From assembly GCA_001778275.1 (NCBI GenBank), contig MFGM01000074.1:14814-52114 (forward strand): a stretch of 37,301 bases of DNA, read 5' to 3'. This stretch comes from Candidatus Falkowbacteria bacterium RIFOXYC2_FULL_48_21 (GTDB lineage Bacteria; Patescibacteriota; Patescibacteriia; UBA11705; JABHMO01). A program made the position numbers and the translations under genes. The notes below the pieces were generated by a model, which worked only from the letters and a program-made list of their open reading frames with translations, had not been told where the DNA came from and searched no databases. This document shows positions 2 to 26,883 of this stretch, piece by piece. Within the stretch, counting starts at the first letter, position 1. Every line of letters starts with the position of its first letter.

Positions 2-289
2 ATCGAAGGAATGATACGGATGATGAATAATGAAGGTGGCTTTGAGGGGCCGGTGAATCTGGGCAATCCGCAAGAGTTTTCGATCAAAGAATTGGCTGAA
101 CTGACTTTGCGATTAATTCCCGAATCTGCCAGCCAAATTGTTTATCAACCGTTGCCATCGGACGACCCGCGGCGCAGAAAGCCCGATATTGCGCTCGCAT
201 CAGAAAAGCTGGGTTGGCAACCGCAAACAACGCTGGCTGACGGATTGGTAAAAACCATTGAGTATTTCAGAAAAAAAATATGCGCATAA
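2..289 (+). CDS. UDP-glucuronate decarboxylase (UXS-type extended SDR), C-terminal fragment; the 5' end lies outside the window
   Basis: The frame is open from the window edge. ...GPVNLGNPQEFSIKELAE...YQPLPSDDPRRRKPDIALASEKLGWQP...GLVKTIEYFRKK matches the conserved C-terminal signature of UDP-xylose synthases as I recall it (human UXS1: NLGNPEEHTI...DDPQKRKPDI...LGWEP). Stop is TAA 287-289. Confidence 0.85.
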   Translation: MEGMIRMMNNEGGFEGPVNLGNPQEFSIKELAELTLRLIPESASQIVYQPLPSDDPRRRKPDIALASEKLGWQPQTTLADGLVKTIEYFRKKICA

Positions 290-1569
290 TGATTATCGGC
301 GCCGGCTATGTGGGCTTGGTCAGTAGCGCTTGTTTTGCGGAGCTCGGACACAATGTCGTTTGCGTGGATACCGATAGCGAAAAAATCAAGGGATTGAATC
401 AAGGGATCATGCCTTTTTTTGAGCCGGGCATCAAGGATTTGGTTTCGGCCAACTTGCTGGCGGCGCGTTTGCAATTCAGTTTGTCGATCAAAGATAATAT
501 AAATAACGTTGACGTTATATTTATTTGCGTCGGCACACCACCGAAGAAGACCGGCCAAGCCGATTTGTCTCAAGTTTTTCAAGCGGCAGAGGAAATCGGC
601 CGGAGTATAAAGCAATACGCGGTGATTGTCACGAAAAGTACGGTACCGGTAGGCGCGGCCAAGAAAATCCGAAAAATCATCAGTGCGAATTATCATAGCG
701 AATATGATGTGGCGTCTTGTCCGGAATTTTTGCGGGAAGGCACGGCCATAAAAGACTTTATGTGTCCGGATCGCATTGTGATCGGCACGGAATCGTTGCG
801 CGCGAGAGAGTGGCTGGTGAAGCTGCACGAAAAAATCGAGTGCCCGAAAATTTTGACCGAAATCGCCACGGCCGAAATGATTAAATACGCTTCGAACGCT
901 TTTTTGGCCACGAAAATTTCATTTATCAACGAAGTGGCAAACGTTTGCGAGTTGGTCGGAGCGGACGTCGAGCGCGTGGCGGAGGGAATGGGTTATGACA
1001 AGCGCATCGGTCGGGCGTTTCTCAATGCCGGAATCGGCTATGGCGGCAGTTGCTTTCCAAAAGATGTGCGAGCCTTGCATCACATTGCCGAAGAGAACGG
1101 TTGCTTGTTTCAGCTTCTGAAAGCGGTGATTGAGGTTAATTCCCAGCAAAAGTGGTTGTTCTATAAAAAAATTAAAACCGTGCTTGGCAATTTGGAAGAA
1201 AAAAGTATCGGCGTTTGGGGCTTGTCCTTTAAACCGGAAACGGACGACATTCGAGAATCCATTGCCATCGAGTTGATCGAGAAATTGATTGAGGATGGTG
1301 CGAAGGTGAAGGTTTACGATCCGGTGGCCATGGCCAACGCCCAAAAAGTTCTGGGTGACCGAGTCGGTTATTGCTTTTCCGCGGCCTACGCGGCCGAAGC
1401 GGCGGACGCGCTGTTGATTATGACGGAATGGGATGAGTTTAGAAATTTTGATTTTAACATCCTCCGCGGCCGGATGCGGCAACAAGTAGTTATCGATGGG
1501 CGCAACCTGTATGACAAAGCGGTATTATCCTCGTTGGGATTTAATTATCTAAGTGTCGGTCGACAGTAG
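280..1569 (+). CDS. ugd: UDP-glucose 6-dehydrogenase
   Basis: 429 aa. Contains the Rossmann motif MIIGAGYVGLV, the catalytic-Cys motif GGSCFPKD and the C-terminal UDP-binding region GLSFKPETDDIRES. ATG 280 overlaps the upstream stop by 10 nt; an in-frame alternative ATG lies at 289. Confidence 0.93.
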   Translation: MRIMIIGAGYVGLVSSACFAELGHNVVCVDTDSEKIKGLNQGIMPFFEPGIKDLVSANLLAARLQFSLSIKDNINNVDVIFICVGTPPKKTGQADLSQVFQAAEEIGRSIKQYAVIVTKSTVPVGAAKKIRKIISANYHSEYDVASCPEFLREGTAIKDFMCPDRIVIGTESLRAREWLVKLHEKIECPKILTEIATAEMIKYASNAFLATKISFINEVANVCELVGADVERVAEGMGYDKRIGRAFLNAGIGYGGSCFPKDVRALHHIAEENGCLFQLLKAVIEVNSQQKWLFYKKIKTVLGNLEEKSIGVWGLSFKPETDDIRESIAIELIEKLIEDGAKVKVYDPVAMANAQKVLGDRVGYCFSAAYAAEAADALLIMTEWDEFRNFDFNILRGRMRQQVVIDGRNLYDKAVLSSLGFNYLSVGRQ

Positions 1570-4303: not shown

Positions 4304-5359
4304 ATGTTGAATAAATACATGAAAAAGGCATTGATCACCGGCATTACCGGCCAAGACGGTTCATATTTGGCCGAATTGCTATTAGAAAAAGGCTATGAAG
4401 TGCATGGCATTATTCGTCGCGCTTCCACTTTTAATACCGGTCGAATTCAACATTTATACCAAGATCCGCATGTGGTCGATAAAACGCTTTATTTGCATTA
4501 TGGCGATGTGGCGGATGCCAGCAATCTGAATCGCTTGATTGAAAAAATTGCCGCCGATGAAATTTATCATCTAGCCGCGCAAAGTCACGTTCGTGTTAGT
4601 TTTGATTTGCCGGAGTATACCTGCGATGTCACGGGTCTTAGTACGACCAGGATCTTGGATGCTATAAAAGAAACGCGAAAAGCAACAAGGTTTTATCAAG
4701 CATCTTCGTCGGAAATGTTTGGTAAAGTCCGACCGGAGGATTTGCCGATAAATGAACAAACCCCATTTTATCCTCGGTCGCCGTACGGTTGCGCTAAGGT
4801 TTACGCATACTGGATGACAAAAAATTATCGCGAAGCTTATAATATGTTCGCGTGCAATGGAATTCTTTTTAACCATGAATCACCACGTCGCGGGGAAACC
4901 TTCGTAACTAGAAAAATCACTCGAGCACTTACGCGCATCAAGCTTGGTCGCGATGAAAAATTGTATTTAGGCAATTTGGATGCTAGACGAGACTGGGGAT
5001 ATGCCAAGGATTATGTTTATGGCATGTGGCAGATGTTGCAGGCGGACAAGCCTGATGATTACATCTTGGCCACCAATGAAGCGCATAGCGTACGGGAATT
5101 TGTAGAAAAAGCAGCTGAGTATTTAGGCATGAGCATTGATTGGAACGGAGTGGGGTTGGCGGAGCAGGGAATTGATCGTCGGTCGGGAAAAGTTATTGTT
5201 GAAATCGACCAGAAATACTTCCGTCCATCAGAGGTCGATGTGTTATTGGGTGATTATTCCAAGGCGAAAAGTGTTTTGCAATGGCAGCCAAGCGTTAAAT
5301 TCGAGCAGTTGGTGGCGTTAATGGTTGACGCTGACTTGAAAGACGCGATTTCGGACTAA
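4304..5359 (+). CDS. gmd: GDP-mannose 4,6-dehydratase
   Basis: Motifs: [31 protein letters not shown], YxxxK (YGCAK), [17 protein letters not shown]. The in-frame ATG at 4319 (MKKALITG...) is an equally plausible start. Confidence 0.95.
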
Positions 5360-5369
5360 TTAAATTTTT

Positions 5370-6311
5370 ATGCAAAAAAACTCATCAATTTATGTTGCCG
5401 GTCATAAAGGTTTAGTCGGGTCGGCAATTGTGCGGCGATTGCTGGATCTCGGCTATACCAACTTGATTTTGCGCAACAGGCGGGAATTGGACCTTTTGTG
5501 CCAAAAAGCGGTGGCGGATTTTTTTTCAGAGCATCGGCCGGAATATGTTTTTTTGGCGGCGGCCAAAGTCGGCGGCATTATGAGCAACAAAACGCACAAG
5601 GCTGATTTTATATATGAAAATTTACAAATTCAGAATAATATTATTCACAATGCGGCGATTTGTGGTATAAGTAAATTATTGTTCTTGGGTTCGTCCTGTA
5701 TTTATCCGCGCGATTGTCCGCAGCCGATGCGAGAGGATTATTTGTTGACTGGATCACTCGAAAAAACGAACGATGCGTATGCCGTTGCCAAGATCGCCGG
5801 CATTAAAATGTGTCAATCGTATAATGAACAATATAATACAAATTTTATTTCAGTGATGCCAACCAATTTGTACGGTATTAATGATAATTTCGATATTGAA
5901 AATGGCCACGTGCTACCTTCGTTGATTCGCAAATTTTATTTGGCAAAAATCAATGAGCAACCTTGCGTTGAGCTGTGGGGGACAGGCGCGCCATTGCGCG
6001 AATTTTTATACGTTGACGATTTGGCTGATGCTTGTGTGTACCTAATGAACAACTACGCACAATCGAGCATCGTTAATATTGGCACCGGTGAAGAGATATC
6101 GATAAAGGACTTGGCCATGCTAATTCGCGATATTGTCGATTATAGAGGCGAGATTATTTGGAACAGCAGTCGCCCGGACGGTACGCCACGAAAACTTCTT
6201 GATGTTTCCAAGCTGCATGTTCTTGGGTGGCAACATCGGGTCACGCTGCGTGTCGGTCTTAAAACGACATATACCTGGTTTTTACAAAATCAGGAAACTT
6301 TACGACAATGA
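5370..6311 (+). CDS. fcl: GDP-L-fucose synthase (GDP-4-keto-6-deoxymannose 3,5-epimerase/4-reductase)
   Basis: 313 aa. Motifs: IYVAGHKGLVGSAI, LGSSCIYP, YAVAKIAG (YxxxK), MPTNLYG. Lies directly downstream of gmd. Confidence 0.93.
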   Translation: MQKNSSIYVAGHKGLVGSAIVRRLLDLGYTNLILRNRRELDLLCQKAVADFFSEHRPEYVFLAAAKVGGIMSNKTHKADFIYENLQIQNNIIHNAAICGISKLLFLGSSCIYPRDCPQPMREDYLLTGSLEKTNDAYAVAKIAGIKMCQSYNEQYNTNFISVMPTNLYGINDNFDIENGHVLPSLIRKFYLAKINEQPCVELWGTGAPLREFLYVDDLADACVYLMNNYAQSSIVNIGTGEEISIKDLAMLIRDIVDYRGEIIWNSSRPDGTPRKLLDVSKLHVLGWQHRVTLRVGLKTTYTWFLQNQETLRQ

Positions 6312-6407: not shown

Positions 6408-7898
6408 ATGTATAGCGAAATTGAATTAAATACGCCTACGGCACCAGAAAGTTTAAGAACCAAAATTGTTCGAGGCAGTATATGGAATATGGCGGGGACG
6501 ATGATGGCACAAGCGGTTAAGATTGTTTCCATGATCGTGATTGCCCGGCTGTTGACACCTGCCGACTTCGCCATTGCCGGCTTATCCACTGCGGCGACCC
6601 AGTTGATAATTTTATTCGGTGGTTTTGGCTTTGGCGAAGCGTTGATCGCGAAGAAGGAAATAACCAAGGAAAGTTGCCATACGGTTTTTTGGGCGACGGC
6701 GGCAATAAAAATAGTGATTGGCTTGATCATTTGCCTTTTGGCAGGGACACTGGCAGATTTTTATCAAAACCAATTGTTGGTAAAGCCGATTATTTTCATC
6801 GGCATCGGTTTCATTTTTTCCATTGGAAATGTTGTGCCGGCCAATTTATTGTATCGAGAAATGCGCTTTTGGGAGCTTAATGTCGTTAATTTTATTGCTA
6901 CGGTCATATCAGTGATTATCGCCGTAATTTTGGCGACAAAAGGCTTCGGCTATTGGTCAATAATTTTCCCGGCCGTTGTAATCACGCCACTCCGTACGAT
7001 TATGCAATCAATCGTTGCCAAGTATTCTCCGCGGCTAAGATTTTCATGGCAAGAGTTGCGACAAATGGCAAATTTTGGATTTTTCGTACTTGGTACCAAG
7101 GTCGCCAGATTTTTCGCTGAAAACGGTGATTATTTAATTCTTGGTCGGTTTTTACCAACGGCTTTATTCGGACAATACTATTTTGCCTACGAGAAAGCAC
7201 GATTGACTATTGATTCCATCGCACCGCAGTTAGAAGGCACACTTTTCCCCGCCTTTAGTAAGATGCAAGATAATGTCGCACGACTTCGCGATAAATGCCT
7301 TGAAGCAACGCAAATGATTACTTGGTTTACCTATCCGTTAAGTATCATTTTGATTTTACTGGCGAAGCCTCTGGTGCCGATCGTTTTTGGCGCACAGTGG
7401 CGGGCGGCGATAGTCGTTTTTCAATTTTTTTGTGCCTATGCTTTCACCTATTATTTGTGGGGTTCGGCGCAAATGACGCTTTATTCACTGAATAAGCCGC
7501 AATCCATATTTTACTTTGAAATCATAAAGATGTTTTTGCTGTTGCCGTTGTTGTTTTGTGCCGGAATAAGTGGAATTACTATTGAGCAGATTGCCTTGTT
7601 TATGCTGATAACCACCTCGATTTTGAATGTGGGAATGACGGTATACATTTATCGATTGCTTGGGACAACGTGGATACATTTTGGACGGCATTTTTATTCT
7701 CTTTGCGCGGCTTGTGGCGTTCTGGCAGTGGTTGGCCTTGTCGTAATTCATCGGCTTGACGGTTTGCGTTTCATTTATACTATCTACAATCTTATTGGCC
7801 TTTGCTTGGCGGGTCTGTTGATTTATGTTATTACCCTCATGATCGTGCAAAAAGGCTTTTGGCAAAAAATTAATTTGGTTTTTCGGTCAATCAAATAA
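6408..7898 (+). CDS. wzx: Wzx-like polysaccharide flippase (MOP/PST superfamily)
   Basis: 496 aa, hydrophobic throughout (about 12-14 helices), with no soluble domain. The N-terminus KIVRGSIWNMAGTMMAQAVKIVSMIVIARLLTPADFA is typical of PST-family flippases. It is preceded by the only sizeable internal gap in the first 15 kb (96 nt). Confidence 0.75.
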   Translation: MYSEIELNTPTAPESLRTKIVRGSIWNMAGTMMAQAVKIVSMIVIARLLTPADFAIAGLSTAATQLIILFGGFGFGEALIAKKEITKESCHTVFWATAAIKIVIGLIICLLAGTLADFYQNQLLVKPIIFIGIGFIFSIGNVVPANLLYREMRFWELNVVNFIATVISVIIAVILATKGFGYWSIIFPAVVITPLRTIMQSIVAKYSPRLRFSWQELRQMANFGFFVLGTKVARFFAENGDYLILGRFLPTALFGQYYFAYEKARLTIDSIAPQLEGTLFPAFSKMQDNVARLRDKCLEATQMITWFTYPLSIILILLAKPLVPIVFGAQWRAAIVVFQFFCAYAFTYYLWGSAQMTLYSLNKPQSIFYFEIIKMFLLLPLLFCAGISGITIEQIALFMLITTSILNVGMTVYIYRLLGTTWIHFGRHFYSLCAACGVLAVVGLVVIHRLDGLRFIYTIYNLIGLCLAGLLIYVITLMIVQKGFWQKINLVFRSIK

Positions 7899-7917: not shown

Positions 7918-9087
7918 ATGCCTATTAGGGAAAAATTTCTTGTTTTTGGTAGTCCGCTTATCGTCGATGACGAAATTAACGAAGTGGTGGCCACCATGCG
8001 TTCCGGTTGGCTCGGCACCGGACCGAAGACCGCGAAGTTCGAGCAAATGATCAAGGAATATGTCGGCACCAAATATGCCTTGGCTGTTAATTCTTGTACT
8101 GCGGGACTGCACCTTTCGTTGATCAGCGCGGGAATAAAACAGGGAGACGAGGTGATTACGACGCCGATGACCTTTGCGGCCACGGCCAATGTTATTTGTC
8201 ACGTCGGCGCGAAACCGGTGTTTGCGGATGTAGATCGCGCGACGATGAATATCGATCCCAAGGAAATCGAAAAGAAAATTACCGAAAAAACCAAGGCTTT
8301 ATTGCCGGTGCATCTTGCCGGCCGCGCGTGCGACATGGAGGCACTCACCGCCATTGCCGCCAAGTATAATCTCAAATTGATCAATGATGCGGCTCATTCT
8401 CTTGAAACCGAATATCATGGTAAAAAAATCGGTTGCTTCGGCGACTTAACCGCTTTTAGTTTTTACGTGACGAAAAATATTACTACGGTTGAAGGGGGTA
8501 TGGTGACGACGGACAATGAAGAATTGGCCAATATGATAAAGATTTATGCCTTGCATGGCATGAGCAAGGACGCGTGGAAGCGATTTTCCGACGAAGGCTA
8601 TAAACATTATCAGGTTATTTATCCGGGTTTCAAGTATAATATGACGGACATGCAGGCCAGCATGGGTATCCACCAGCTGAAACGAATCGAAGCCGGCGCG
8701 GTCAGACGAAAGGCGCTCTGGGAGAAATATAATAATGCGTTTCGTGATTTACCTTGTTTCGTCCCGGCGCCGGTCGAAGTCGATACTCGTCACGCGTATC
8801 ATTTATATACGTTGCTGGTTGATTTGGAAAAGTTAACCGTTGACCGTGACGCTATCATGAATGCGTTGCACAAAGAAAATATCGGCACCGGCGTTCATTA
8901 TACCGCTTTGCATTTACATCCATTCTATGCCAATACATTCGGCTACAAAAAAGGGGATTTTCCAAACGCGGAATATATTTCCGATCGGACATTGTCTTTA
9001 CCGTTTTCGCCAAAACTAACGGATCAAGACGCGGATGATGTTATCAATGCGGTTACAATCGTTTTAAATCGATATAAAAAATCATAG
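7918..9087 (+). CDS. PLP-dependent sugar aminotransferase, DegT/DnrJ/EryC1 family, ArnB-like
   Basis: 389 aa. Blocks parallel E. coli ArnB as I recall it: RSGWLGTGPK, GDEVITTPMTF, FSFYVTKNITTVEGGMVTTD (PLP lysine), PGFKYNMTD, HAYHLY, IGTGVHY, SLPFSPKLTDQDADDVI. Confidence 0.88.
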   Translation: MPIREKFLVFGSPLIVDDEINEVVATMRSGWLGTGPKTAKFEQMIKEYVGTKYALAVNSCTAGLHLSLISAGIKQGDEVITTPMTFAATANVICHVGAKPVFADVDRATMNIDPKEIEKKITEKTKALLPVHLAGRACDMEALTAIAAKYNLKLINDAAHSLETEYHGKKIGCFGDLTAFSFYVTKNITTVEGGMVTTDNEELANMIKIYALHGMSKDAWKRFSDEGYKHYQVIYPGFKYNMTDMQASMGIHQLKRIEAGAVRRKALWEKYNNAFRDLPCFVPAPVEVDTRHAYHLYTLLVDLEKLTVDRDAIMNALHKENIGTGVHYTALHLHPFYANTFGYKKGDFPNAEYISDRTLSLPFSPKLTDQDADDVINAVTIVLNRYKKS

Positions 9088-9096
9088 TGCTTTTAT

Positions 9097-9816
9097 ATGG
9101 AATTTGACGTTTCAATCGTTATCGCTTGCTACAACGAAGAACCGTTGCTTGTGCAAAGTGTCAAGGAGTTGCGCCAAGTGATGGATCAGACGCGCTATAC
9201 ATATGAGTTGATTTTTATTGACGATTGTAGCCGAGATCGAACCAAGGACATCATAATCCAGATTGTCAAGGATTTGCCGAATACGCATTCTTTGTTTCAT
9301 GAAAAAAATAAAGGCCGCGGCGGCACGGTGACCGATGGCTTGAAAATGGCCGCGGGTAAAGTGGCGGGATTCTTGGATATTGATTTGGAAGTGCACGCGC
9401 GTTATATCCCATCGATGGTTCAAGCGATTTTGGACGGCGCTGACGTGGCCACGGCTTACCGATTTTATAATGTTGGCCTAAATCCCGTGGCCGTTTTGCG
9501 GCACGTGCTTAGTATCGGATATCGTAAGCTTATGCGGTTGGTTTTAAAGTTGCCGTTGAACGACACGGAAACCGGTTACAAATTTTTTAATCGTGAGAAA
9601 ATTTTGCCGGTATTGGAGAAAACAACCAATCAGGGCTGGTTTTGGGATACGGAAATCATGGCCTTGGCTTATTTTGTTGGCCTAAAAATAGTTGAAATTC
9701 CTTGTTTGTTTATCAGGCGGACGGATAAAGTTTCCAGCGTTAAAATTTTCAAAGATAGTATCGAATACTATAGGGAGTTGAGAAAATTTAAGCAAAAACT
9801 GAACGGCACGAAATAA
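9097..9816 (+). CDS. Family 2 glycosyltransferase, Dpm1/GtrB/ArnC-like (candidate polyprenyl-phosphate sugar synthase), short form without C-terminal TM helices
   Basis: 239 aa. Motifs: VSIVIACYNEE, YELIFIDDCSRD, GFLDIDLE (acidic DxD-type motif). GT2 membership is solid; the lipid-phosphate acceptor is inferred from context. Confidence 0.8.
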   Translation: MEFDVSIVIACYNEEPLLVQSVKELRQVMDQTRYTYELIFIDDCSRDRTKDIIIQIVKDLPNTHSLFHEKNKGRGGTVTDGLKMAAGKVAGFLDIDLEVHARYIPSMVQAILDGADVATAYRFYNVGLNPVAVLRHVLSIGYRKLMRLVLKLPLNDTETGYKFFNREKILPVLEKTTNQGWFWDTEIMALAYFVGLKIVEIPCLFIRRTDKVSSVKIFKDSIEYYRELRKFKQKLNGTK

Positions 9817-9817
9817 T

Positions 9818-10444
9818 ATGATTAATACAAGGTCGGATAATAAGAGCTTTATCTATTCTTCGCCATTGATTTATCAACTTACCATGCGTCTGCTTTACCG
9901 ATGTGGTTTTGGTTCGCGATATGAGGCGATTGCAAAATACATTCCGGATCATGCCTCCGTTGTTGACGTTTGTTGTGGCGACTGTTATCTATTTCATCAT
10001 TATTTAAAGTATAAAGCCGTTGACTATATCGGGCTGGATATCAATCGCTCTTTTGTCAATGATGCTCTCAAACGGGGGGTCAAGGCGAAACTTTTTGATA
10101 TTAACATTGACCCTTTGCCATCGGCTGAATATATCATCATGCAAGCGAGCTTGTATCAATTTATTCCAAATCAAAAAACAATCCTGGATAAACTTTTCAA
10201 TTCAGCGACTCGCGGTGTTATCATCACAGAGCCGATCCGTAATCTTTCGGACTCCAAAAATCCCGTTATAGCTTTTATCGCCAGGCGGGCGGCCAACCCC
10301 GGATCTGGTCACGCCAAGAATCGCTTTGACGAGAATAGTTTGCTCCAATTGTTGAAGAGTCGACAGCAGCCAATATCCACTTGCTTTAAAATTAAGGGCG
10401 ATAAGGAGTTGGTGGCGATTTTTGAAATAAAAGATACAAAATAA
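9818..10444 (+). CDS. Probable class I SAM-dependent methyltransferase
   Basis: 208 aa. The motif-I-like segment VVDVCCGDCY is followed by IGLDIN (post-I acidic residue) and IIMQASLYQF. This is more divergent than the neighbouring methyltransferases. Confidence 0.6.
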   Translation: MINTRSDNKSFIYSSPLIYQLTMRLLYRCGFGSRYEAIAKYIPDHASVVDVCCGDCYLFHHYLKYKAVDYIGLDINRSFVNDALKRGVKAKLFDINIDPLPSAEYIIMQASLYQFIPNQKTILDKLFNSATRGVIITEPIRNLSDSKNPVIAFIARRAANPGSGHAKNRFDENSLLQLLKSRQQPISTCFKIKGDKELVAIFEIKDTK

Positions 10445-10457
10445 ATGAATACCCAGT

Positions 10458-11192
10458 ATGGAACACGATGTGTATGCTAAAATGTTTGAATTTGAAAAAG
10501 GCTTTTGGTGGTTTGTCGGACGACGAAAGATTGTTTTTAACGAATTAGCGAAGATCACAAGCACACTCGCAAATGTCGTGTTGGTTGACATCGGCTGTGG
10601 CACTGGTATAACCATGGAGCTGGCCACGGGTTTTCAAAAAAAAATCGGCATAGATTTTTCCGAAGAAGCGCTCAGATACGCCAAGACGAGAAATTGCGGT
10701 GAACTGGTGGCTGGTGATATTTATAAAATACCCATAGCAGATAATACTGCTGATTGTGTTTTGCTGATGGATGTTTTGGAGCATTTACGGGACGAGAGCG
10801 ACCCGCTCAAGGAAGTTTTTCGAATATGTAAAAAGGGTGGACGAATTATCGTCACTGTGCCCGCTTATCAATTCCTTTGGGGCGGCGAAGACGAAGTGTC
10901 AATGCATAAACGGCGGTACACAAAAACAAGATTACTTTCGATAATAGAAGAGGCGGGTTTTCAAGTCGAACGCACATCATACTTTAACACAATCTTATTC
11001 CCGATCATTGGCGCAATAATTTTATTTAACCGCTTATTCAATACCAGAGCGAAGCATGAAACGAATATGAAACGATTACCAAAGATATTAAACACCGGCT
11101 TAATAAAGATGCTTTTGCTGGAAGCATGGTTATTGAAAAAAATAACCTTTCCCTATGGCGCATCAGTAATTTGCGTGGCGAAGAAGAATTAA
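10458..11192 (+). CDS. Class I SAM-dependent methyltransferase with a hydrophobic C-terminal segment
   Basis: 244 aa. Motifs: VLVDIGCGTGITME (motif I), IGIDFSEEAL, DCVLLMDVLEHL, GGRIIVTVP. A hydrophobic stretch FNTILFPIIGAIILFNRLF lies near the C-terminus. Confidence 0.85.
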   Translation: MEHDVYAKMFEFEKGFWWFVGRRKIVFNELAKITSTLANVVLVDIGCGTGITMELATGFQKKIGIDFSEEALRYAKTRNCGELVAGDIYKIPIADNTADCVLLMDVLEHLRDESDPLKEVFRICKKGGRIIVTVPAYQFLWGGEDEVSMHKRRYTKTRLLSIIEEAGFQVERTSYFNTILFPIIGAIILFNRLFNTRAKHETNMKRLPKILNTGLIKMLLLEAWLLKKITFPYGASVICVAKKN

Positions 11193-11193
11193 T

Positions 11194-13671
11194 ATGGGAG
11201 TATATATAATTTGGACGGTGGTAGTATTTATCGCATATTTGGCCATCCGGTGGCCTTATTTTAAGTTACCAATCAGCGCCGATTCCGGATTCTACGTGTC
11301 CAATGCGACAATCTTGAATAAAAAAATCGATTTTTCCAAAGGCTGGAACGCGAATTATGCCTTCGGTAGCAAATGGCTGGTAGAATATTTTTACAGTTTA
11401 ATTTATTTATGGTTCGGGAACAAAAAATATAAAGCATATTCACGATTGTTTTTTTCGTTTTTTAATTATTTGACCGGAATAACTGTCGGCTTTTGCGCTT
11501 TTTATTTTGTCCAGGAGAGCTTGACGGCTTATCTCGTCGGTTTAACCGTTTACTGCCTGATTTCATCCGAACCTCATTATGGCGTTTATTTTGAAAGTGG
11601 TGATCAGTTCGAGCCGCTGTTTCAAGCGCTGGGTACGCTCTTTTTAATAATCGGCACATCGGTCGCCAATGAATACCTGATCATGCTGGGTATTTTTTGC
11701 TGGTTGGCGAATGCCGTGCTGGTAAAAATATCAGCCTTACTGCCGGCAATCATCGTGACCATCGGCGTTTTGATAGTGAATAGAACTCATTTTGCCACAT
11801 TGGCGCCGCTCATTGCTATTGACATGTTTGCCGGCACTTTGATTTACCTTTGGATTTTAAGCCGGTCGACATTGGGACTCATGATCCGGCTACGAGCTGT
11901 CTTTGGCCATGAAATCGTTGAGAGCCAGACAATCGATGGGAAGGAAAATTTATTGTTTCGTTTCACGCCGTTTTTGCGTTGTTTGCAAAAGACAAAACAG
12001 ACGCTGATAATCATGGCCGTCAACCCCATTATTCCATGTTTGGCTATTTTTGGCCTTGTTTTGACAATGAAAACGGTCAATCCGATTTTACTCACCGTGT
12101 TGATTTGTTTTGCCGCCGTTTTGGCCAAGTTTTACATCAGTCTGACACCGATTTGGTATTATAATATTCCCTTCCTACCATATGTAAGCATTTTTGCCGC
12201 GCAAGCGGTCGTTTCAATGCTATCTAATGTAAATCAAGGTACGTTAATTATTCTCGCATTATTGGTGATTTGGTTCATTCGAAACATACTTTTCGTAAAA
12301 TTTAAAGCTGTCGACCGGCTGGCCAGCTATGTGTGGCATTTTCAGGTTAAAAATAGAGGGGTGGACAGTTATCGAAGCGATTGTGCGGCAGTCGGAATAG
12401 AAAAAATTATCTCGGCTGACAAAACGATGTTACTTTACGGTCACAATGAATTGTATGTGTTAACTGGAAGGAGTTATGCCATTCCATTCAATACGGCGAT
12501 GGGATATATCGCAGATCTTGAGCCTGCGTGGGTAGAAAAATTGCATCGGCAAATGCTGGTCGCTCCGCCGGACTATATTGCTGATACGTTCGGCATCTGT
12601 GACATAATGGCAATCAAAAACAATTTGGGGCTTAATTATCAACAGGTAAAAACCTTTGGCGAGAATAATCAAATTACCCTTTATCGTTTGATTGACCGAC
12701 GCAATGACGATTTCGCGACTAATCTAAACTTTGCCAGTTTAAAAACAACCCAAAAGCATGCCCCCGCAACGCTTGATTGCCCAATGTGCCAATCGCGAAA
12801 TATCAAAAAGTTGTTTACTGATCACAATCGTCGGGACGGAATTGAATGCGCTGGGACGTACTCTCAGTGTTTGATTTGCCAGCATGTTTTTTTATCTGAC
12901 CGACCGACATGGCTTGCAATCGAACATTTTTATTCCACAGTCAATCAGGGTTGTACCGTCAATGAGCGCACTAATAATCTCGATAATCGGCCGCCTTCTT
13001 TGATCAAAAAGACACTGCGACGGTTACGTTTTCGACCCCATTCATGGCCCCTAGCGTCGGCCAATGAACAGAGGAACCGTTTGCTCGATCTTGGTTGTGG
13101 CACGGGGACGAAATTGCTTGAATTCTCTGAGCGTGGGTATCAAATTTGGGGCGTGGATATCAGTCCAGAAGCCATTGAAATCGCTCGTAAGATTTTACCG
13201 CGAGCAAAATTTTTCGTGTCGGAATTAGATAGCGTTGATTTACCCAATGATTATTTTGATTTCATTCGCATCGACAACACCTTAGAGCACGTTGATGATC
13301 CTGAACGATTGATTGCAAGATGTTCTCAGCTTTTACGTCGAAGCGGGGAGCTAATGATTTATGTCCCACACGGTCAAAGTTTTTCCATGCGGGTATTTAA
13401 AGGAAACTCTGTTTCTTCGTGGATTCCTTTCCATCTAAATTTATTTTCGACTAAATCATTGGCGGACCTATTAAGAAAAAATAATTTCAGCCAAGTCAGG
13501 ATTCGCGGCTACTGTCCGCTAACATGGTTGCCGATTAGCATTGTCCAGAGCGGTTTTGGCTCGATACAACGCAGTAAATGGTTAAATATATTATGTTATC
13601 CGTTTGGTTGGCTGTTTTGTCGAATTGGCATGGCCGAGGAATTAGTTGGTATTGGGACAAAAAATGATTGA
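11194..13671 (+). CDS. Fusion protein: N-terminal ~12-TM polytopic membrane domain (GT-C-like?), soluble linker, Cys4 zinc ribbon, and C-terminal class I SAM methyltransferase
   Basis: 825 aa. Amino acids 1 to about 372 are hydrophobic helices, with DSGFY (nt 11281-11295) in the first loop. CPMC (12778-12789) and CLIC (12868-12879) form a zinc-ribbon-like pair. The methyltransferase part has motif I LLDLGCGTG (13081-13107), VDISPEAIE and FDFIRIDNTLEHVDDP. Confidence 0.7.
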   Translation: MGVYIIWTVVVFIAYLAIRWPYFKLPISADSGFYVSNATILNKKIDFSKGWNANYAFGSKWLVEYFYSLIYLWFGNKKYKAYSRLFFSFFNYLTGITVGFCAFYFVQESLTAYLVGLTVYCLISSEPHYGVYFESGDQFEPLFQALGTLFLIIGTSVANEYLIMLGIFCWLANAVLVKISALLPAIIVTIGVLIVNRTHFATLAPLIAIDMFAGTLIYLWILSRSTLGLMIRLRAVFGHEIVESQTIDGKENLLFRFTPFLRCLQKTKQTLIIMAVNPIIPCLAIFGLVLTMKTVNPILLTVLICFAAVLAKFYISLTPIWYYNIPFLPYVSIFAAQAVVSMLSNVNQGTLIILALLVIWFIRNILFVKFKAVDRLASYVWHFQVKNRGVDSYRSDCAAVGIEKIISADKTMLLYGHNELYVLTGRSYAIPFNTAMGYIADLEPAWVEKLHRQMLVAPPDYIADTFGICDIMAIKNNLGLNYQQVKTFGENNQITLYRLIDRRNDDFATNLNFASLKTTQKHAPATLDCPMCQSRNIKKLFTDHNRRDGIECAGTYSQCLICQHVFLSDRPTWLAIEHFYSTVNQGCTVNERTNNLDNRPPSLIKKTLRRLRFRPHSWPLASANEQRNRLLDLGCGTGTKLLEFSERGYQIWGVDISPEAIEIARKILPRAKFFVSELDSVDLPNDYFDFIRIDNTLEHVDDPERLIARCSQLLRRSGELMIYVPHGQSFSMRVFKGNSVSSWIPFHLNLFSTKSLADLLRKNNFSQVRIRGYCPLTWLPISIVQSGFGSIQRSKWLNILCYPFGWLFCRIGMAEELVGIGTKND

Positions 13672-21988: not shown

Positions 21989-23860
21989 ATGGCCGAAATT
22001 AAAAAAAAGTTCGTCTTTCTAAAAGGGAAGTGGCTGTTGATTGCTTACACTGTTTTGATATTGGCAACTTTGCCGTACGATCTGGCGGTTCGCCCAGCTA
22101 TTCTATATTTGCTGTATGCGTTATTTATTCTTATGCTATTTGTTGTCGTTATCAATAGCCCAAAAAACGCCATCGGTCAGCCGACCGTTCCCGGCCGCGA
22201 CCGATTTTTCTTTTGGTTGATAATTTTATCCAGTTTGGTCATTTTATTCACACGCCTATTACCATTTTTGCGATTTGGCGACGCCCCGCTTGGTTATGAT
22301 ACCGGCTTTTATCATGAACGTTCAACCATGCCTGGTGTTTTAGCCGAAACCGAGCCGTTCTACTTTATTTTGGCCGCATTACAAACGTTTGGAATCGAGA
22401 CGATTTGGGCGATTAACATTCTATGCATTGTGGCGCAATTTTTATTGCCAGGCAGTCTTTATTTGATATTTCGGTCATTGAAAGTTAAACATAATTTTGT
22501 TTTCGCGGCAGTCGCTTTTTTCATTTGCGCGGTTTCCGCTACCCAATTTCACGCTTTTTGGTCCATGTTTCCGCAACAAATATTATCAATCAGCTTCTTG
22601 TTCGCAACCGTGGCGCTGATCTTGCGTCAGTCACCGGCCGCTATCTTGTCCGGCTATCTCGGCGCCGCCCTAAATACACCGACCTTTGCTTTATTTTTGT
22701 TGACGTTGATTATCTTTTTAATTGTCATATGTGTATTAAAATTTTATAAGCGCTTGCATTACGACCATCAGTTCTTGCTATACTCTCTCCTCGGATACGC
22801 TGTGGTTTATTTGGTGCTGGTTGTATTATTTGAAGAGTTTTCCGCCGCCCCAAGCGAAGCCTATCACCTCTATCTCGACCGGTTGCTGGGCGGCATCGGT
22901 TGGTTCATTTTGTTGCCGATCGCCATATTACTATTCCAATTGTTTTGGCGTAAACGGATAATCAGTTATAAGATTTTATTGTTTGTAATTTCTGTTTTTG
23001 CCATGTGGAACTTTTTTTACTTGACACATCACACCGGCGAACTGGATGAAATCAATACCACTATCAGCTTCATTACCGAATATCACGGGTTAGCCAGCAA
23101 TTATCCATTTTGGCGAATACCAGAGATCAAGGGTCTGTTCATTAATGTGAGCACGTTTCGGATGATTAACCTGTTATTTATTCCTTTTGTTATTTTGGGA
23201 TTTTGCTTACCGCGACTGTGGGAACATGACGCGGACGAGGAATCTCTTGTGTCGCGCTGGTTGATGTTTCTATACATCATGTTTCTTCTTTTGCTGGTTT
23301 TCGTAACTTTTCCGTTTATTTACCAAAATCGATTTTTGATCGTTTTCGATATTGTTTTCATTCTCGTTATGACGCCGCCGCTCGCCAGGCTATTATTCGA
23401 CTTTGGAAGGAGCCGCGGGGGACAGATTTTGATTATCTTGTTTTTTTTGATTTTTTCTGCCAAAATAGTGGCGCAAGCTTGGCGCCAGCAGCCAATGTTG
23501 CCCGTGAATGAATATCAGGAAATTAAAACTTTAGCCAGTTTGGTTGAGCCGCGCGCTCGTTTGCTCGCCACCAACAGCAACGATACGCCGTGGGTAATGG
23601 GTTTTTCGAAGCTGATCGCTTTTGGTCCGGGCTATGGCGGTGATACTTGGAGTATGGACGAATGGATCGAATTCTGGCGCGGGGACAGTGATGAACGGCG
23701 ACTCAAGTTAATGAATGACAGCGGTTACTCCAACTATCCGTTCTATTTCTATATCGGCGGCCGTGAACCGATCGATTGGCCGTATCAAAAATTTATTCGC
23801 AATAGCGGCCATTTCGAGCAAACGTCAGAGCACGTTTGGAAATATCTGCCATCATTATGA
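21989..23860 (+). CDS. Large polytopic membrane protein with a C-terminal soluble domain (GT-C-like architecture)
   Basis: 623 aa. About 14 hydrophobic helices occupy the first ~500 aa, followed by a ~120-aa polar C-terminal domain (PMLPVNEYQEIKTLASLVEP...WVMGFSK...YFYIGGREPIDWPY). The loop motif GYDTGFYHE (DTGFY at nt 22298-22312) echoes the DSGFY of the 11194 product. Confidence 0.5.
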   Translation: MAEIKKKFVFLKGKWLLIAYTVLILATLPYDLAVRPAILYLLYALFILMLFVVVINSPKNAIGQPTVPGRDRFFFWLIILSSLVILFTRLLPFLRFGDAPLGYDTGFYHERSTMPGVLAETEPFYFILAALQTFGIETIWAINILCIVAQFLLPGSLYLIFRSLKVKHNFVFAAVAFFICAVSATQFHAFWSMFPQQILSISFLFATVALILRQSPAAILSGYLGAALNTPTFALFLLTLIIFLIVICVLKFYKRLHYDHQFLLYSLLGYAVVYLVLVVLFEEFSAAPSEAYHLYLDRLLGGIGWFILLPIAILLFQLFWRKRIISYKILLFVISVFAMWNFFYLTHHTGELDEINTTISFITEYHGLASNYPFWRIPEIKGLFINVSTFRMINLLFIPFVILGFCLPRLWEHDADEESLVSRWLMFLYIMFLLLLVFVTFPFIYQNRFLIVFDIVFILVMTPPLARLLFDFGRSRGGQILIILFFLIFSAKIVAQAWRQQPMLPVNEYQEIKTLASLVEPRARLLATNSNDTPWVMGFSKLIAFGPGYGGDTWSMDEWIEFWRGDSDERRLKLMNDSGYSNYPFYFYIGGREPIDWPYQKFIRNSGHFEQTSEHVWKYLPSL

Positions 23861-24282
23861 CGACATTAGAGCGCCAACGGCGATCAAAATCAATTTGGAT
23901 AATTATGGGTGCGCTAATTGCTCTGGTCATATTGAGTTTATGGTTGCCGATAATGAACATATTGTCCGGTACACTCGGTGTGATTTTGGTTTTTTTCCTG
24001 CCAGGATTCTGCTTAACCGGCCTCATCTTCCCACAAACGCGTCCGACCGACGAACCGACCCGTATCGAAGTGGCCGGACAAGGCTATCAGTCGGGGACAG
24101 ACATGTTCGAACGAATTTTTTTGAGCCTCTTTTTTTCCTTGTCGTTGACGGCTTTAATTTTTTGGGTCATGCGGTATTTTGCGATATTGACATCACTTAA
24201 AATTATCTACACGGAAGTCATCATGAATCTTATTCTAGTTTGCGCTCTGCTGATAGTAAAACGTTGGCACAAAAAACATTAA
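23857..24282 (+). CDS. Small 4-TM membrane protein, DUF1616-N-terminus-like
   Basis: The ORF-track start 23836 is a TTG. ATG 23857 forms an ATGA overlap with the upstream stop. The 141-aa product contains WIIMGALIALVILSLWLP, GVILVFFLPGFCLTGLIFPQT (it resembles the LPGYAL..LFP block I recall from DUF1616 proteins) and two further helices. Confidence 0.5.
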   Translation: MTTLERQRRSKSIWIIMGALIALVILSLWLPIMNILSGTLGVILVFFLPGFCLTGLIFPQTRPTDEPTRIEVAGQGYQSGTDMFERIFLSLFFSLSLTALIFWVMRYFAILTSLKIIYTEVIMNLILVCALLIVKRWHKKH

Positions 24283-24304: not shown

Positions 24305-26872
24305 ATGCAAAATTTCAATATGCGTATTGCGATCGATACTTTGGCCGTCAATCGGGACGACTTCGGCGGCGGAGAACAGTATCTCGCCAATTTAGTTTCT
24401 GCCTTGTCAGACATTGACAAACAAAATCAATATTACATTTTTGTTTGTCCACAAAATAAAGAAAAATTCGACTTGACGCGCCCCAATATAAAAATGATAG
24501 AATGCGCAGTTGATAATCGATATAAAATTAGACGTATCCTTTTTGAACAATTTTGTTTGCCGCGCTTGCTGAAGGCATATCAAATCGATATTTATCATGG
24601 CCCGAATAACACTTTACCATTATGGCTACCATGCCCGGCCGTCGTGACGATTCAATTTATGATCAATTTTATTTCCCCAACGCAGTTCAAACCGTTTTAC
24701 AAGCGTTGGTATTTCAATTTATTAATGAAGCGGTCTGTCCGTAAGGCGGACACGGTCATCGCGGTTTCGGAAAGTTTAGCAAAAGAAATTAACGGTCTGC
24801 TCGGCGTTGATTTTAAAAAAATACGGGTGGTACATCACGGCGTATCCAGCCAATTCTGCCAGCGGAAGGAACCGGGGGAGGCCGATAAACTGCGGCATGA
24901 TTTTAATATTACCCGACCGTATATCCTTTGTGTGGCCAACAACGTTTCGAATAAAAATTATTGCGGCTTAATCCACGCTTTCGCCAAATTAAAATCGGCG
25001 CATCAAATACCACATCAACTGATTTTCGTTGGCTCGACGGATATCGACCCGGTCGAAAAAGCCAAAACGTTAAACGTTATAGCGGCACTGCCGCAATCGA
25101 TATCGGCCGATATTTTATTTTTGGGCTTTATTAAGCACGGGGAACTGCCGAGTCTGTACCGCGGTGCCGCCGTATTTGCCTTACCTTCTTTTTGCGAATC
25201 ATTTGGTATTCCGCTCGTGGAAGCCATGGCTTGTGGCGCGCCGATTGTTACTTCCAATGTTTCCGTCATGCCGGAAATTATCAGAAACGCCGGATTAAAA
25301 GTTGATCCTAAAAATCCATCCGCAATCGCTGAAGCAATTTATTCGATTATCAGCAATGAAACGCTACGGCGCAGATTGTCCGATCGAGCCGTTCACCGTG
25401 CGCAATCATTCACCTGGCAAAACGCGGCGGAAAAAACTTTGTCTGTATATTCGGAAATATTCGCAACAGCAATTTCAACCGAGCCGCAAAAAAAACAACG
25501 GGGTGTTTTATTTATAAATCCGCCACGCGAAGTTCCGCAACGCGTTGATTATCCGCCTCTTGGTCTGGCGTATCTTGCGGCATATTTAAAACAAAATAAT
25601 ATCAAAGCCAGCGTCCTTGATGCCGCAGGCATGACGTGGAAACAATTGGTAGCTGCCGTCAAAAAACGCCAGCCTTATATCGTCGGCTTGCCCTGCTGGA
25701 CAGTGGAAAGAGAACAAACGTTCATGGCCGCCAAGCTGGTCAAGTCGTTTATTCCTGACGTCAAATTGATTTTTGGCGGGCATCATGCCACAGTTTTTCC
25801 CGCACAAATGTTTCGTCTAGCTGATGCCGATGCGGTCGTACTCGGAGAAGGTGAGCTGACCACGTTAGAGTTGGTAACATCGTTGTTGGATAATGCTCCG
25901 TTGGCCGGAATAAAGGGCATCGCCTATCGTGAAGCGGGCAATATTGTGATTACCGAACCAAGAGAATTTATCTCTGATTTGGACACAATTCCTTTTCCGA
26001 GCTATGATGATTTTAATTTGGATGACTATCTCGGATTACCGGAAACAACGAGAAAATCAGCGGCGCTGATGACTTCCCGCGGTTGTCCCTACGCTTGTGT
26101 CTATTGTGCCGCGTCAAAATTTTGGAAACGACAATGGCGCGCACGTTCGGCGCAAAACGTTTTAGCGGAAATTGATTATTTGTATCGCACCCACGGCGTT
26201 AGGGCGCTGATGTTTTTTGATGATAATTTTACGATCCGGAAAGATCGCGTAATTGATATTTGCCACGGTATCATTAAACGCCAACTGGACGTTATTTGGG
26301 CCGCTTGCTCTCATGTAAATCAAATTGACGCCGAAATGTTGGATTGGATGAAAAAGGCCGGTTGCTATCGGATTGATTTCGGCGTGGAATCTGGTAGTCC
26401 CGAAGTATTAAAGAATATCAAAAAAAATCAAACCACCGCCAAGGTTGAGGAAACCTTTCGATTATGCCATGAGGCGGGGATCAAGCCGCGAGCTTATTTG
26501 ATGGTTGGTAATCCGGGCGAAAACGATAAAACAATAGACGAAACAATTGCACTGTTAACTAAAATTAAACCGCATGATACCATAAGCGGGCAAATTCTGT
26601 GGATTTTGCCGGGCACGGAAATATATGACATCGCCAAGGCCAAAGGAATTATTTCCGATGACTATTGGTTGAAAAACGATAAATTCATCCCTTATTATAC
26701 GGGCGAGCATACGGAAAAAGAATTAAAAAAATTGCGTGATAAATTAACCCATGGCACAACTAAAATTGATAAAAAATTTACCGCTTATTTAAGTTATTTG
26801 ATCCGAAAAATATATTATCGGTTTCCGGTACTACAAAAGGCGCGCGCTCTTAAAAAAAGATTCAAAATCTAA
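24305..26872 (+). CDS. Fusion protein: GT4 (GT-B fold) glycosyltransferase plus cobalamin-binding-domain (class B) radical SAM enzyme
   Basis: 855 aa; an alternative start is ATG 24320 (MRIAIDTLAV). The GT4 part extends to about aa 385 (FALPSFCESFGIPLVEAMACGAPIVTSNVSVMPEII). The linker is ATAISTEPQKKQRG. The B12-like Rossmann part reads GVLFINPP...PPLGLAYLAAYLKQNNIKASVLDA...KLIFGGHHATVFP. The radical SAM CxxxCxxC is CPYACVYC at nt 26084-26107, followed by FFDDNF and IDFGVESGS. Confidence 0.85.
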   Translation: MQNFNMRIAIDTLAVNRDDFGGGEQYLANLVSALSDIDKQNQYYIFVCPQNKEKFDLTRPNIKMIECAVDNRYKIRRILFEQFCLPRLLKAYQIDIYHGPNNTLPLWLPCPAVVTIQFMINFISPTQFKPFYKRWYFNLLMKRSVRKADTVIAVSESLAKEINGLLGVDFKKIRVVHHGVSSQFCQRKEPGEADKLRHDFNITRPYILCVANNVSNKNYCGLIHAFAKLKSAHQIPHQLIFVGSTDIDPVEKAKTLNVIAALPQSISADILFLGFIKHGELPSLYRGAAVFALPSFCESFGIPLVEAMACGAPIVTSNVSVMPEIIRNAGLKVDPKNPSAIAEAIYSIISNETLRRRLSDRAVHRAQSFTWQNAAEKTLSVYSEIFATAISTEPQKKQRGVLFINPPREVPQRVDYPPLGLAYLAAYLKQNNIKASVLDAAGMTWKQLVAAVKKRQPYIVGLPCWTVEREQTFMAAKLVKSFIPDVKLIFGGHHATVFPAQMFRLADADAVVLGEGELTTLELVTSLLDNAPLAGIKGIAYREAGNIVITEPREFISDLDTIPFPSYDDFNLDDYLGLPETTRKSAALMTSRGCPYACVYCAASKFWKRQWRARSAQNVLAEIDYLYRTHGVRALMFFDDNFTIRKDRVIDICHGIIKRQLDVIWAACSHVNQIDAEMLDWMKKAGCYRIDFGVESGSPEVLKNIKKNQTTAKVEETFRLCHEAGIKPRAYLMVGNPGENDKTIDETIALLTKIKPHDTISGQILWILPGTEIYDIAKAKGIISDDYWLKNDKFIPYYTGEHTEKELKKLRDKLTHGTTKIDKKFTAYLSYLIRKIYYRFPVLQKARALKKRFKI

Positions 26873-26883
26873 TATACGGAAAT

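Follow-up and report, generated by a model that had tools for sequence, protein, structure and literature searches.

Does a bacterial polysaccharide cluster hold a counterpart of Arn, the pathway that adds 4-amino-4-deoxy-L-arabinose (Ara4N) to lipid A, in which methylation stands where Arn has formylation and deformylation? The question is raised by five adjacent genes (7918 to 13671, plus strand) in a stretch of 37,301 nt, here called the window, which covers positions 14,814 to 52,114 of contig MFGM01000074.1 (assembly GCA_001778275.1, Candidatus Falkowbacteria bacterium RIFOXYC2_FULL_48_21). The genes encode an aminotransferase, a family 2 glycosyltransferase (GT2), two S-adenosylmethionine (SAM) methyltransferases termed MT1 and MT2, and an 825-aa membrane protein that joins a GT-C-like domain to a third methyltransferase part, MT3. 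We consider the chances evenly balanced that this module is co-transcribed and adds a methylated amino sugar to the polysaccharide of the cluster through a polyprenyl-phosphate-linked intermediate. The mechanism would follow the logic of Arn and of the three-component glycosylation systems, with methylation replacing formylation and deformylation; membership in the Ara4N/lipid A pathway itself is not supported. A first-pass annotation of the window had proposed such Arn-like logic. The genes that it placed were all confirmed on the plus strand by open reading frames (ORFs) and Pfam matches, and the general logic agrees with fold matches, a conserved gene order and a modifying gene behind the GT2, while the Ara4N and lipid A specifics did not hold.

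Gene content and conservation of the module

The module, all on the plus strand, opens with a pyridoxal-phosphate sugar aminotransferase of the DegT family (7918 to 9087; 389 aa; PF01041, E=1e-133), which is ArnB-like. The GT2 behind it (9097 to 9816; 239 aa; PF00535) lacks transmembrane (TM) helices and has the fold of the polyprenyl-phosphate glycosyltransferases ArnC, DPMS and GtrB. Its AlphaFold2 (AF2) model has a predicted local distance difference test (pLDDT) value of 93.4, and in a Foldseek search of the Protein Data Bank (PDB) the top 24 matches were all ArnC (query-based TM-score, TMq, 0.72-0.79), DPMS (0.76-0.81) or GtrB (0.63-0.74), in keeping with its earlier description as a short Dpm1/ArnC-like enzyme. 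By sequence the best PDB match is DPMS 5mlz (residues 4-230), and full-length alignments were obtained exclusively with polyprenyl-phosphate sugar synthases, namely DPMS, AglJ, PpgS and a Dol-P-hexose transferase. The NCBIfam PpgS model aligned over the full length, weakly, at 34 bits (cut-off 370), and the ArnC equivalog, whose cut-off is 529, gave 45.9 bits. With its last residue at 239, the protein stops short of the region in which ArnC has its C-terminal TM helices (the matched chains have about 300-355 residues), and so consists of the catalytic part alone, without a membrane anchor. Judged by its fold, the GT2 probably charges polyprenyl phosphate with a monosaccharide.

Both methyltransferases that follow had been described as soluble. 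This is true of MT1 (9818 to 10444; 208 aa), a MetW-like class I SAM methyltransferase (PF07021, E=1.9e-8); MT2 (10458 to 11192; 244 aa), a Methyltransf_11 SAM methyltransferase (PF08241, E=1.2e-19), has hydrophobic segments at residues 176-194 and at its C-terminus and is therefore not plainly soluble. MT3 (12778 to 13671) is made up of a Cys4 zinc ribbon (residues 529-562 of the 825-aa protein, CPMC...CLIC as read from the sequence) and a Methyltransf_23 domain (621-766; PF13489, E=3.8e-23), fused to the GT-C-like domain. No PDB relative of MT1 was found, while MT2 and MT3 retrieved generic class I enzymes only, with no sugar N-methyltransferase prominent among them. Pfam and NCBIfam scans and BLASTP found no formyltransferase, no ArnD-type polysaccharide deacetylase and no ArnE/F-like protein among the proteins of the window, as the first-pass annotation had noted for the formyltransferase and the deformylase.

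Loci with a GT-C-like gene, found in part with a nine-sequence alignment, were scanned with the proteins of the window. Nine distinct distant loci (L011, L016/L028, L018, L021, L022, L024, L026, L027 and L034) contain the full cassette in the order DegT aminotransferase, GT2 (~240-285 aa), small protein (cupin or MT1), MT2 orthologue, second methyltransferase (~200 aa) and GT-C-like gene, so that the gene order whose co-occurrence had been suggested as a check is indeed conserved. Locus L027 has one methyltransferase only, L016/L028 only the MT2-like one, and L012 and L025, which are cut off upstream, retain MT2, the methyltransferase and the GT-C-like gene. The GT-C-like proteins of these cassettes are 30-45% identical to that of the window. 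Orthologues of MT2 (83-132 bits) are located upstream of the GT-C-like gene, either adjacent to it or one methyltransferase gene away, in L011, L012, L016/L028, L018, L021, L022, L024, L025, L026 and L034. MT2 is the constant partner of the GT-C-like protein, and the two form a constant core to which a variable sugar-making part is attached. Three loci are exceptions: L013, where the GT-C-like gene has a sulfotransferase context, L029, where it is part of a 1898-aa multi-glycosyltransferase fusion, and the phage contig L006 described below.

Between GT2 and MT2 the distant cassettes encode a cupin of 125-152 aa of the CapF C-terminal type (PF14667; L011:7608-7988, with equivalents in L021, L022, L024, L025, L026, L027 and L034), at the place where the window has MT1. 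This small conserved gene was considered as a GtrA-like flippase and was rejected as such, its product being a soluble cupin and not a membrane protein. Related cassettes contained no formyltransferase or ArnD-type deformylase, and no 4,6-dehydratase was detected within 6-10 kb of the distant cupin-bearing cassettes.

The aminotransferase and GT2 of the window have closer relatives elsewhere, in which the orthologous pair is partnered with classical GT-C enzymes (PMT_2, YfhO). In L041 the order is DegT, PMT_2, GT2 (313 bits), hexapeptide acetyltransferase and PMT_2, and in L042 it is GT2, SDR (short-chain dehydrogenase/reductase), NTP-transferase, DegT (596 bits), GT2 (314 bits) and an MT1 orthologue (187 bits), with YfhO nearby. 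The context in L042 points to a 6-deoxyhexose. The position right after the DegT-GT2 pair is thus held by an MT1 orthologue in one locus and by the acetyltransferase in the other, and it is this alternation of MT1 with an N-acetyltransferase-type protein directly behind the GT2 that best supports methylation in place of the formylation of Arn. In L003 the position of MT1 is taken by a 68-aa ORF without detectable homology.

A member of the GT-C-like family was also observed on a phage contig (L006:5333-8030), in the vicinity of portal and capsid genes. It is a GT-C-like::GT2 fusion of 676 aa (P0009), followed by a Methyltransf_23 protein, and hints at phage-borne modification of surface glycans by this family.

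Source of the amino sugar

The first-pass annotation had derived a 4-aminopentose from UDP-glucuronic acid (UDP-GlcA) through two enzymes at the start of the window, Ugd (280-1569, plus strand; three Pfam domains, all matched) and a UXS-type decarboxylase, of which the window holds only the C-terminal fragment (2-289, plus strand). Both identifications were confirmed. The complete UXS-like gene was recovered from a longer contig (L007:9054-10001), and its product, an SDR of 315 aa, scores 419 bits against human UXS1 (4gll, 2b69; residues 2-313) versus about 92 bits against ArnA. It falls far short of two NCBIfam cut-offs, with 108 bits where ArnA requires 777 and 123 where the 4-keto-pentose/UDP-xylose synthase family requires 294. 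By these scores the enzyme is a canonical UDP-xylose synthase and not an ArnA-type decarboxylase that releases UDP-4-keto-pentose, which is how the proposed recovery of the missing 5' part of the gene turned out. In the syntenic cluster L003 a helix-turn-helix gene directly precedes Ugd and UXS is absent from that position.

The aminotransferase was placed against ArnB, Per and PseC by ranking of bit scores. It is 40.5% identical to E. coli ArnB over 375 aa, and the conserved blocks that had been quoted as tracking ArnB do align. Among PDB structures ArnB ranks first (280-307 bits, the best being 1mdo at 307), followed by perosamine synthases (208-211) and PseC (186). On NCBIfam, however, the protein stays below both cut-offs, with 386 bits for the ArnB equivalog (cut-off 631) and 378 for PseC (cut-off 423.5). 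Thousands of homologues from diverse phyla score far above ArnB (the best 120 are 63-98% identical), and the close ones come from Bacteroidota, Omnitrophota, Spirochaetes and Halobacteriota. Thousands of these, forming a clade separate from ArnB, share 63-72% identity with the enzyme. With the cut-off widely missed and PseC scoring nearly as high, the enzyme appears to be ArnB-like without being an ArnB orthologue. The gene context was read for three relatives that are 65-71% identical. One has a housekeeping context, another lies with a cupin, a CapE-like SDR and an Epimerase_2 gene, and the third with RmlA-, RmlB- and RmlC-like genes. Because two of the three adjoin genes of the 4,6-dehydratase or 6-deoxyhexose type, the aminotransferase clade is not tied to decarboxylation of UDP-GlcA.

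Within the window, the sole 4,6-dehydratase, and hence the sole source of a 4-keto-6-deoxy sugar, is Gmd, which is encoded together with Fcl at 4304 to 6311 (plus strand; PF16363, E=9e-150; Fcl 471 bits on NCBIfam). Gmd and Fcl also occur near the GT-C-like gene in L018 and L020. A perosamine-type sugar made from the Gmd product had been offered earlier as an alternative. The closest similarity of the aminotransferase is not to characterised Per/RfbE, whose structures score below ArnB as given above, a ranking that leaves room for activity on the Gmd product, and this alternative is no less plausible than Ara4N. The substrate is more likely a 4-keto-6-deoxyhexose, for example the product of Gmd, than a 4-keto-pentose, and the sugar formed is more likely to be of the perosamine type, or another 4-amino-4,6-dideoxyhexose, than Ara4N.

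In the Ara4N route Ugd and the UXS-like enzyme would yield UDP-4-keto-pentose; UDP-Ara4N or a related sugar would then be methylated, loaded onto undecaprenyl phosphate (Und-P), flipped, and used by an outward-facing ArnT analogue on an extracytoplasmic acceptor. ArnB as the best-scoring solved relative of the aminotransferase, the presence of Ugd and a UDP-GlcA decarboxylase within the cluster, and the predicted ArnC-like and ArnT-like folds speak for this route. We nevertheless regard it as improbable, given the canonical UXS scores of the SDR, the absence of UXS beside Ugd in L003, the shortfall of the aminotransferase on the ArnB equivalog with a near-equal PseC score, and the contexts of its relatives, two of three by RmlB- or CapE-type dehydratases and one housekeeping, with the pair in L042 by an SDR and an NTP-transferase. 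No flippase accompanies the module either, and the side of the GT-C-like domain that bears the conserved residues is predicted to be cytoplasmic.

Fold and orientation of the 825-aa membrane protein

The 825-aa protein (11194 to 13671) has about 11 TM helices, a soluble domain, the Cys4 zinc ribbon and the Methyltransf_23 domain. It was found identical on independent ENA, JGI and NCBI contigs and is labelled a hypothetical protein at NCBI. Profile scans of residues 1-529 gave no Pfam or NCBIfam match. The AF2 model of this part (pLDDT 83.6; predicted TM-score, pTM, 0.86) retrieved with Foldseek only GT-C enzymes at ranks 1-28 (STT3, ArnT, ALG9/12, PglB, AftB and Emb), and for the membrane domain STT3 and ArnT (5f15/5ezm) lead at a TM-score of ~0.55. 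As modelled, residues 1-529 probably adopt the GT-C fold, with a membrane domain of about 11 TM helices (residues 1-369) followed by an alpha/beta domain (370-~505), encoded together at 11194 to 12777 (plus strand). A large polytopic protein in the position of ArnT, carrying a third methyltransferase domain, is what the first-pass annotation had described. Membership in the ArnT family was rejected, as there is no PMT_2 Pfam match, no BLASTP match to E. coli ArnT and an hhalign probability of 0.2%; the fold alone is common to both.

The family is rare, with 81 representatives among 1.84 billion proteins, most of which stand alone and have 510-570 aa. Across 52 members R84, E134 and K178 are invariant, while R19, D30 (in the first loop) and K266 are nearly so, and the motif SEPHYG..ES.EQFE is kept in the closer relatives. 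Taken from the alignment, the set D30, E126, H128, E134, E140, R84, K178 and K266 looks like a GT-C active site.

Two other polytopic proteins of the window were considered as paralogues of this family. The 472-aa neighbour was rejected by hhalign, and for the 623-aa protein (21989-23860), which has no Pfam or NCBIfam match, the hhalign match (probability 5.6%) was limited to a 20-residue motif. After its third TM helix the latter carries 'RFGDAPLGYDTGFY', a PLxxDTGFY motif as in loop 1 of the GT-C-like family, and it may be a second GT-C-like enzyme. The 148-aa ORF after this gene (23836-24282) is a DUF1616-like membrane fragment.

The number of TM helices in the GT-C-like domain, 11, was taken from the AF2 helices and hydropathy. 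With this count one side of the membrane holds loop 1 (residues 19-84, with D30), the acidic motif 125-140, K178, the loop 223-268 and the C-terminal alpha/beta domain, an arrangement that is the plan of ArnT. Common to both proteins is a tight hairpin centred on Lys, TKG in E. coli ArnT (between TM5 and TM6) and VKIS in the protein of the window. The charges, however, are distributed oppositely. In the family the mean number of Lys and Arg residues is 15.1 on the side of the large loops (25 including loop 1) versus 1.7 on the other side, a bias seen in 52 of 52 members, whereas in E. coli ArnT it is reversed (17 inside and 7 outside in short loops). The C-terminal fusions of the family, made without a TM linker, join it to a SAM methyltransferase (the window and P0015), to GT2 (P0026, P0056, P0009 and P0071), to WecG/TagA (P0049) and to a GT2-GT4-GT2 array (P0033), all of them partners that require cytoplasmic cofactors. 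In the window no hydrophobic segment lies between residue 370 and about residue 795, which leaves the junction with MT3 without a TM helix, and the fused part opens with the zinc ribbon, which we counted as further evidence of a cytoplasmic location. The charge bias, the linker-free fusions and the zinc ribbon therefore place the side with the conserved residues, by prediction, in the cytoplasm.

The two parts of this prediction differ in strength. A cytoplasmic C-terminal domain is robustly predicted for the family. That the whole putative active-site face is cytoplasmic hinges on the TM count and could go either way. Ten TM helices, which would set loop 1 outside while keeping the C-terminus inside, are a possible alternative; this requires residues 160-195 to form a single span with the invariant Lys178 buried, and ArnT shares the Lys-centred hairpin. 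On the 11-helix count, the domain at about 11194-12780 may represent a GT-C-fold family inserted in the membrane opposite to every characterised GT-C enzyme. Its catalytic-looking loops and C-terminal domain would be cytoplasmic, and on the inner leaflet it would use, or present, a methylated amino sugar linked to polyprenyl phosphate while physically coupled to methyltransferases and nucleotide-sugar glycosyltransferases. This is a tentative proposal, to which we give somewhat less than an even chance. The earlier expectation of transfer to an extracytoplasmic acceptor is not supported, there being no small flippase and the GT-C loops being predicted to face the cytoplasm.

The same fusions and charge bias, with the missing flippase, would also fit a scheme without any lipid-linked monosaccharide. 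A soluble NDP-(methyl)amino sugar would be formed, the GT2 would extend a repeat unit on undecaprenyl diphosphate (Und-PP), and the GT-C-fold protein would serve as a cytoplasm-facing scaffold or as a binding module for lipid intermediates that holds the methyltransferase, GT2, GT4 or WecG. DPM1-like GT2s also include extenders of lipid-linked glycans, for example archaeal AglG, AglI and AglE, which we count in favour of this scheme. The full-length fold of the GT2 nonetheless matches polyprenyl-phosphate monosaccharide synthases throughout, the catalytic-looking residues listed above are retained in the membrane protein, and the orthologous DegT-GT2 pair is found elsewhere with bona fide GT-C enzymes. 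We find this scheme unlikely, if less so than the Ara4N route.

STT3 and PglB being among the best fold matches, an oligosaccharyltransferase-like role was weighed as well, in which the GT-C-fold protein would glycosylate a Ser/Thr-rich secreted protein whose gene lies at the cluster's end, where a signal-peptide protein with a Thr-rich tract does start at 36554. Such a role would need the opposite of the predicted topology, a reading of the sequence found no WWDYG-type motif or large oligosaccharyltransferase C-terminal domain, and the Thr-rich gene lies 23 kb away and is absent from the other cassette loci. We give this role very little credence.

Cluster setting, proposed mechanism and related systems

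All long ORFs of the window are on the plus strand and together make up one polysaccharide cluster, of the Wzx type and initiated by a Bac_transf transferase. It begins with the UXS fragment, Ugd, a TviB-like UDP-GlcNAc 6-dehydrogenase, the Bac_transf initiating transferase, Gmd, Fcl and Wzx. The only flippase candidate, of the Wzx type (6408 to 7898; PF13440, E=2e-68), lies directly upstream of the module, as it does in the syntenic cluster L018. Successive genes from Wzx through the 825-aa gene are separated by 1-19 nt, and those of the module by such gaps or short overlaps. After the five module genes come the 472-aa polytopic protein, an FkbM methyltransferase, GT1_2-type transferases and a pyruvyl transferase with an FrhB-like partner, then the 623-aa polytopic protein, a GT4-B12-radical SAM fusion, a second B12-radical SAM enzyme and another methyltransferase. 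The end of the cluster is formed by an ADH-GFO/IDH/MocA fusion, a C5-epimerase-like protein, a GT4, a WecB-type epimerase, DUF218 and Wzz.

Several of these later genes deserve separate mention. The region 24305-29079, with an 855-aa fusion of GT4 to a B12-binding radical SAM enzyme followed by the second B12-radical SAM enzyme and a class I methyltransferase, suggests further methylation of the glycan, possibly C-methylation. In 29083-32200 the glucuronyl C5-epimerase-like protein adjoins a 716-aa protein in which a zinc-type alcohol dehydrogenase is fused to GFO/IDH/MocA. If the TviB-like dehydrogenase (1601-2890) is counted in, as well as the WecB-type epimerase (33389-34474), the set is reminiscent of the WbpA/B/E/I pathway of 3-keto/3-amino uronic acids; the aminotransferase of the window, however, is only weakly WbpE-like (151 bits). 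Directly after the Wzz-like gene, at 36554-37301, is a gene that continues past the end of the window. Its product has a signal peptide, repeats of GYGYGAG and a tract rich in Thr, with ten of these residues in a row. The protein may be secreted or of the S-layer type and is a possible target of glycosylation.

The nearest syntenic cluster (L003/L014/L018) is located on a 564-kb contig of a metagenome-assembled genome of Gammaproteobacteria, with proteins 44-87% identical to those of the window, while NCBI assigns proteins identical to those of the window to a Candidatus Falkowbacteria bin. Wrong binning or horizontal transfer of the cluster could account for this, and the taxonomic assignment of the window is therefore uncertain.

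Within this setting the preferred mechanism, with a lipid-linked and methylated amino sugar, would run as follows. The DegT enzyme, whose family is clear, would aminate an NDP-4-keto sugar, and MT1 would methylate the new amino group, as its position, held by an N-acetyltransferase-type protein in a related locus, suggests. The TM-less GT2 would then move the sugar onto polyprenyl phosphate, in line with its fold. Further methyl groups may be added at the membrane by the membrane-associated MT2 and the fused MT3. Finally the GT-C-fold protein would pass the sugar to the glycan. For this last step the predicted topology favours the cytoplasmic face, in which case transfer would precede export by Wzx.

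Several observations weigh against this mechanism. The methyltransferases match generic class I folds alone, by which N- and O-methylation are indistinguishable, and no firm source of a 4-keto sugar is assigned to the aminotransferase. Neither the window nor any related cassette contains a flippase of the GtrA or ArnE/F type, and three-component systems are defined by extracytoplasmic transfer, with which the predicted topology is in conflict. Distant cassettes have a LegC/PseC-like DegT protein and a GT2 that reaches no more than 33-54 bits against that of the window, and the sugar therefore differs between loci. No member of the cassette was found with known enzyme activity or glycan structure.

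Compared with Arn (PmrHFIJKLM in E. coli and Salmonella), the module has an aminotransferase, a polyprenyl-phosphate sugar synthase and a GT-C-fold membrane protein in the same order of roles, and the likeness extends to the identity with ArnB, the fold matches to ArnC and ArnT and the Lys-centred hairpin. It differs in lacking the ArnA formyltransferase, an ArnA-type decarboxylase, ArnD and ArnE/F, with methyltransferases instead, and in a GT2 without the TM helices of ArnC. Its membrane protein has no sequence or profile similarity to ArnT and the opposite distribution of charge, and it belongs to a Wzx-type polysaccharide cluster, whereas Arn modifies lipid A.

Three-component extracytoplasmic systems, such as GtrA/B/C, GacI/J/K/L and CsbB/GtcA/YfhO (Mann & Whitfield 2016; Kelly et al. 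2024, PMC11127046), are marked by a synthase of the lipid-linked donor and a GT-C-fold enzyme, and in a published system sugars are tailored while on the polyprenyl-phosphate carrier (PMC11127046). Both hallmarks are present in the window at the level of fold. The module is likewise embedded in a polysaccharide cluster, and the phage-borne member in L006 recalls Gtr seroconversion cassettes. Unlike these systems, it has no GtrA-type flippase, it brings its own aminotransferase and two to three methyltransferases, and its GT-C-like family is unannotated, with large loops and C-terminus predicted to be cytoplasmic.

Two further systems share parts of the module. In the mycobacterial PpgS (Rv3631)/Rv3779 system a TM-less GT2 of ~240 aa makes a polyprenyl-phosphate amino sugar for a GT-C transferase. 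The GT2 of the window is of similar size, also TM-less, and aligns weakly with the PpgS model over its full length. In this galactosamine system the amino sugar comes from UDP-HexNAc, and there is no aminotransferase or methyltransferase. TylB/TylM1 and DesV/DesVI pair a DegT aminotransferase with class I SAM methyltransferases of ~240 aa that act on the new amino group, and their products are soluble dTDP-3-amino sugars for soluble GT-B transferases. The window has the same succession of a DegT-family aminotransferase and class I SAM methyltransferases, whereas the partners here are a lipid-carrier GT2 and a membrane protein; TylM1 and DesVI were not among the PDB matches of MT1, MT2 or MT3.

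DegT aminotransferases, polyprenyl-phosphate GT2s, class I methyltransferases and the GT-C fold are each of a kind already known. In the literature we found no description of their combination in this cassette, of the GT-C-like family, of fusions between this family and cytoplasmic enzymes, or of a GT-C enzyme that faces inward. Lipid-carrier glycosylation by three-component systems explains much of the diversity of surface glycans, as well as polymyxin resistance. To our knowledge, the sugars that known systems of this kind add outside the membrane are either unmodified or formylated transiently. The module would extend the scheme by a built-in aminotransferase and SAM methyltransferases, giving decoration with a methylated, possibly cationic, amino sugar. 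It defines a conserved and portable cassette, found also on a phage contig, and would bring into the three-component scheme a GT-C-fold family without a Pfam or NCBIfam match. The natural C-terminal fusions of this family serve as topology reporters, and an inward orientation, if true, would break the rule that GT-C enzymes act only on the non-cytoplasmic face of the membrane.

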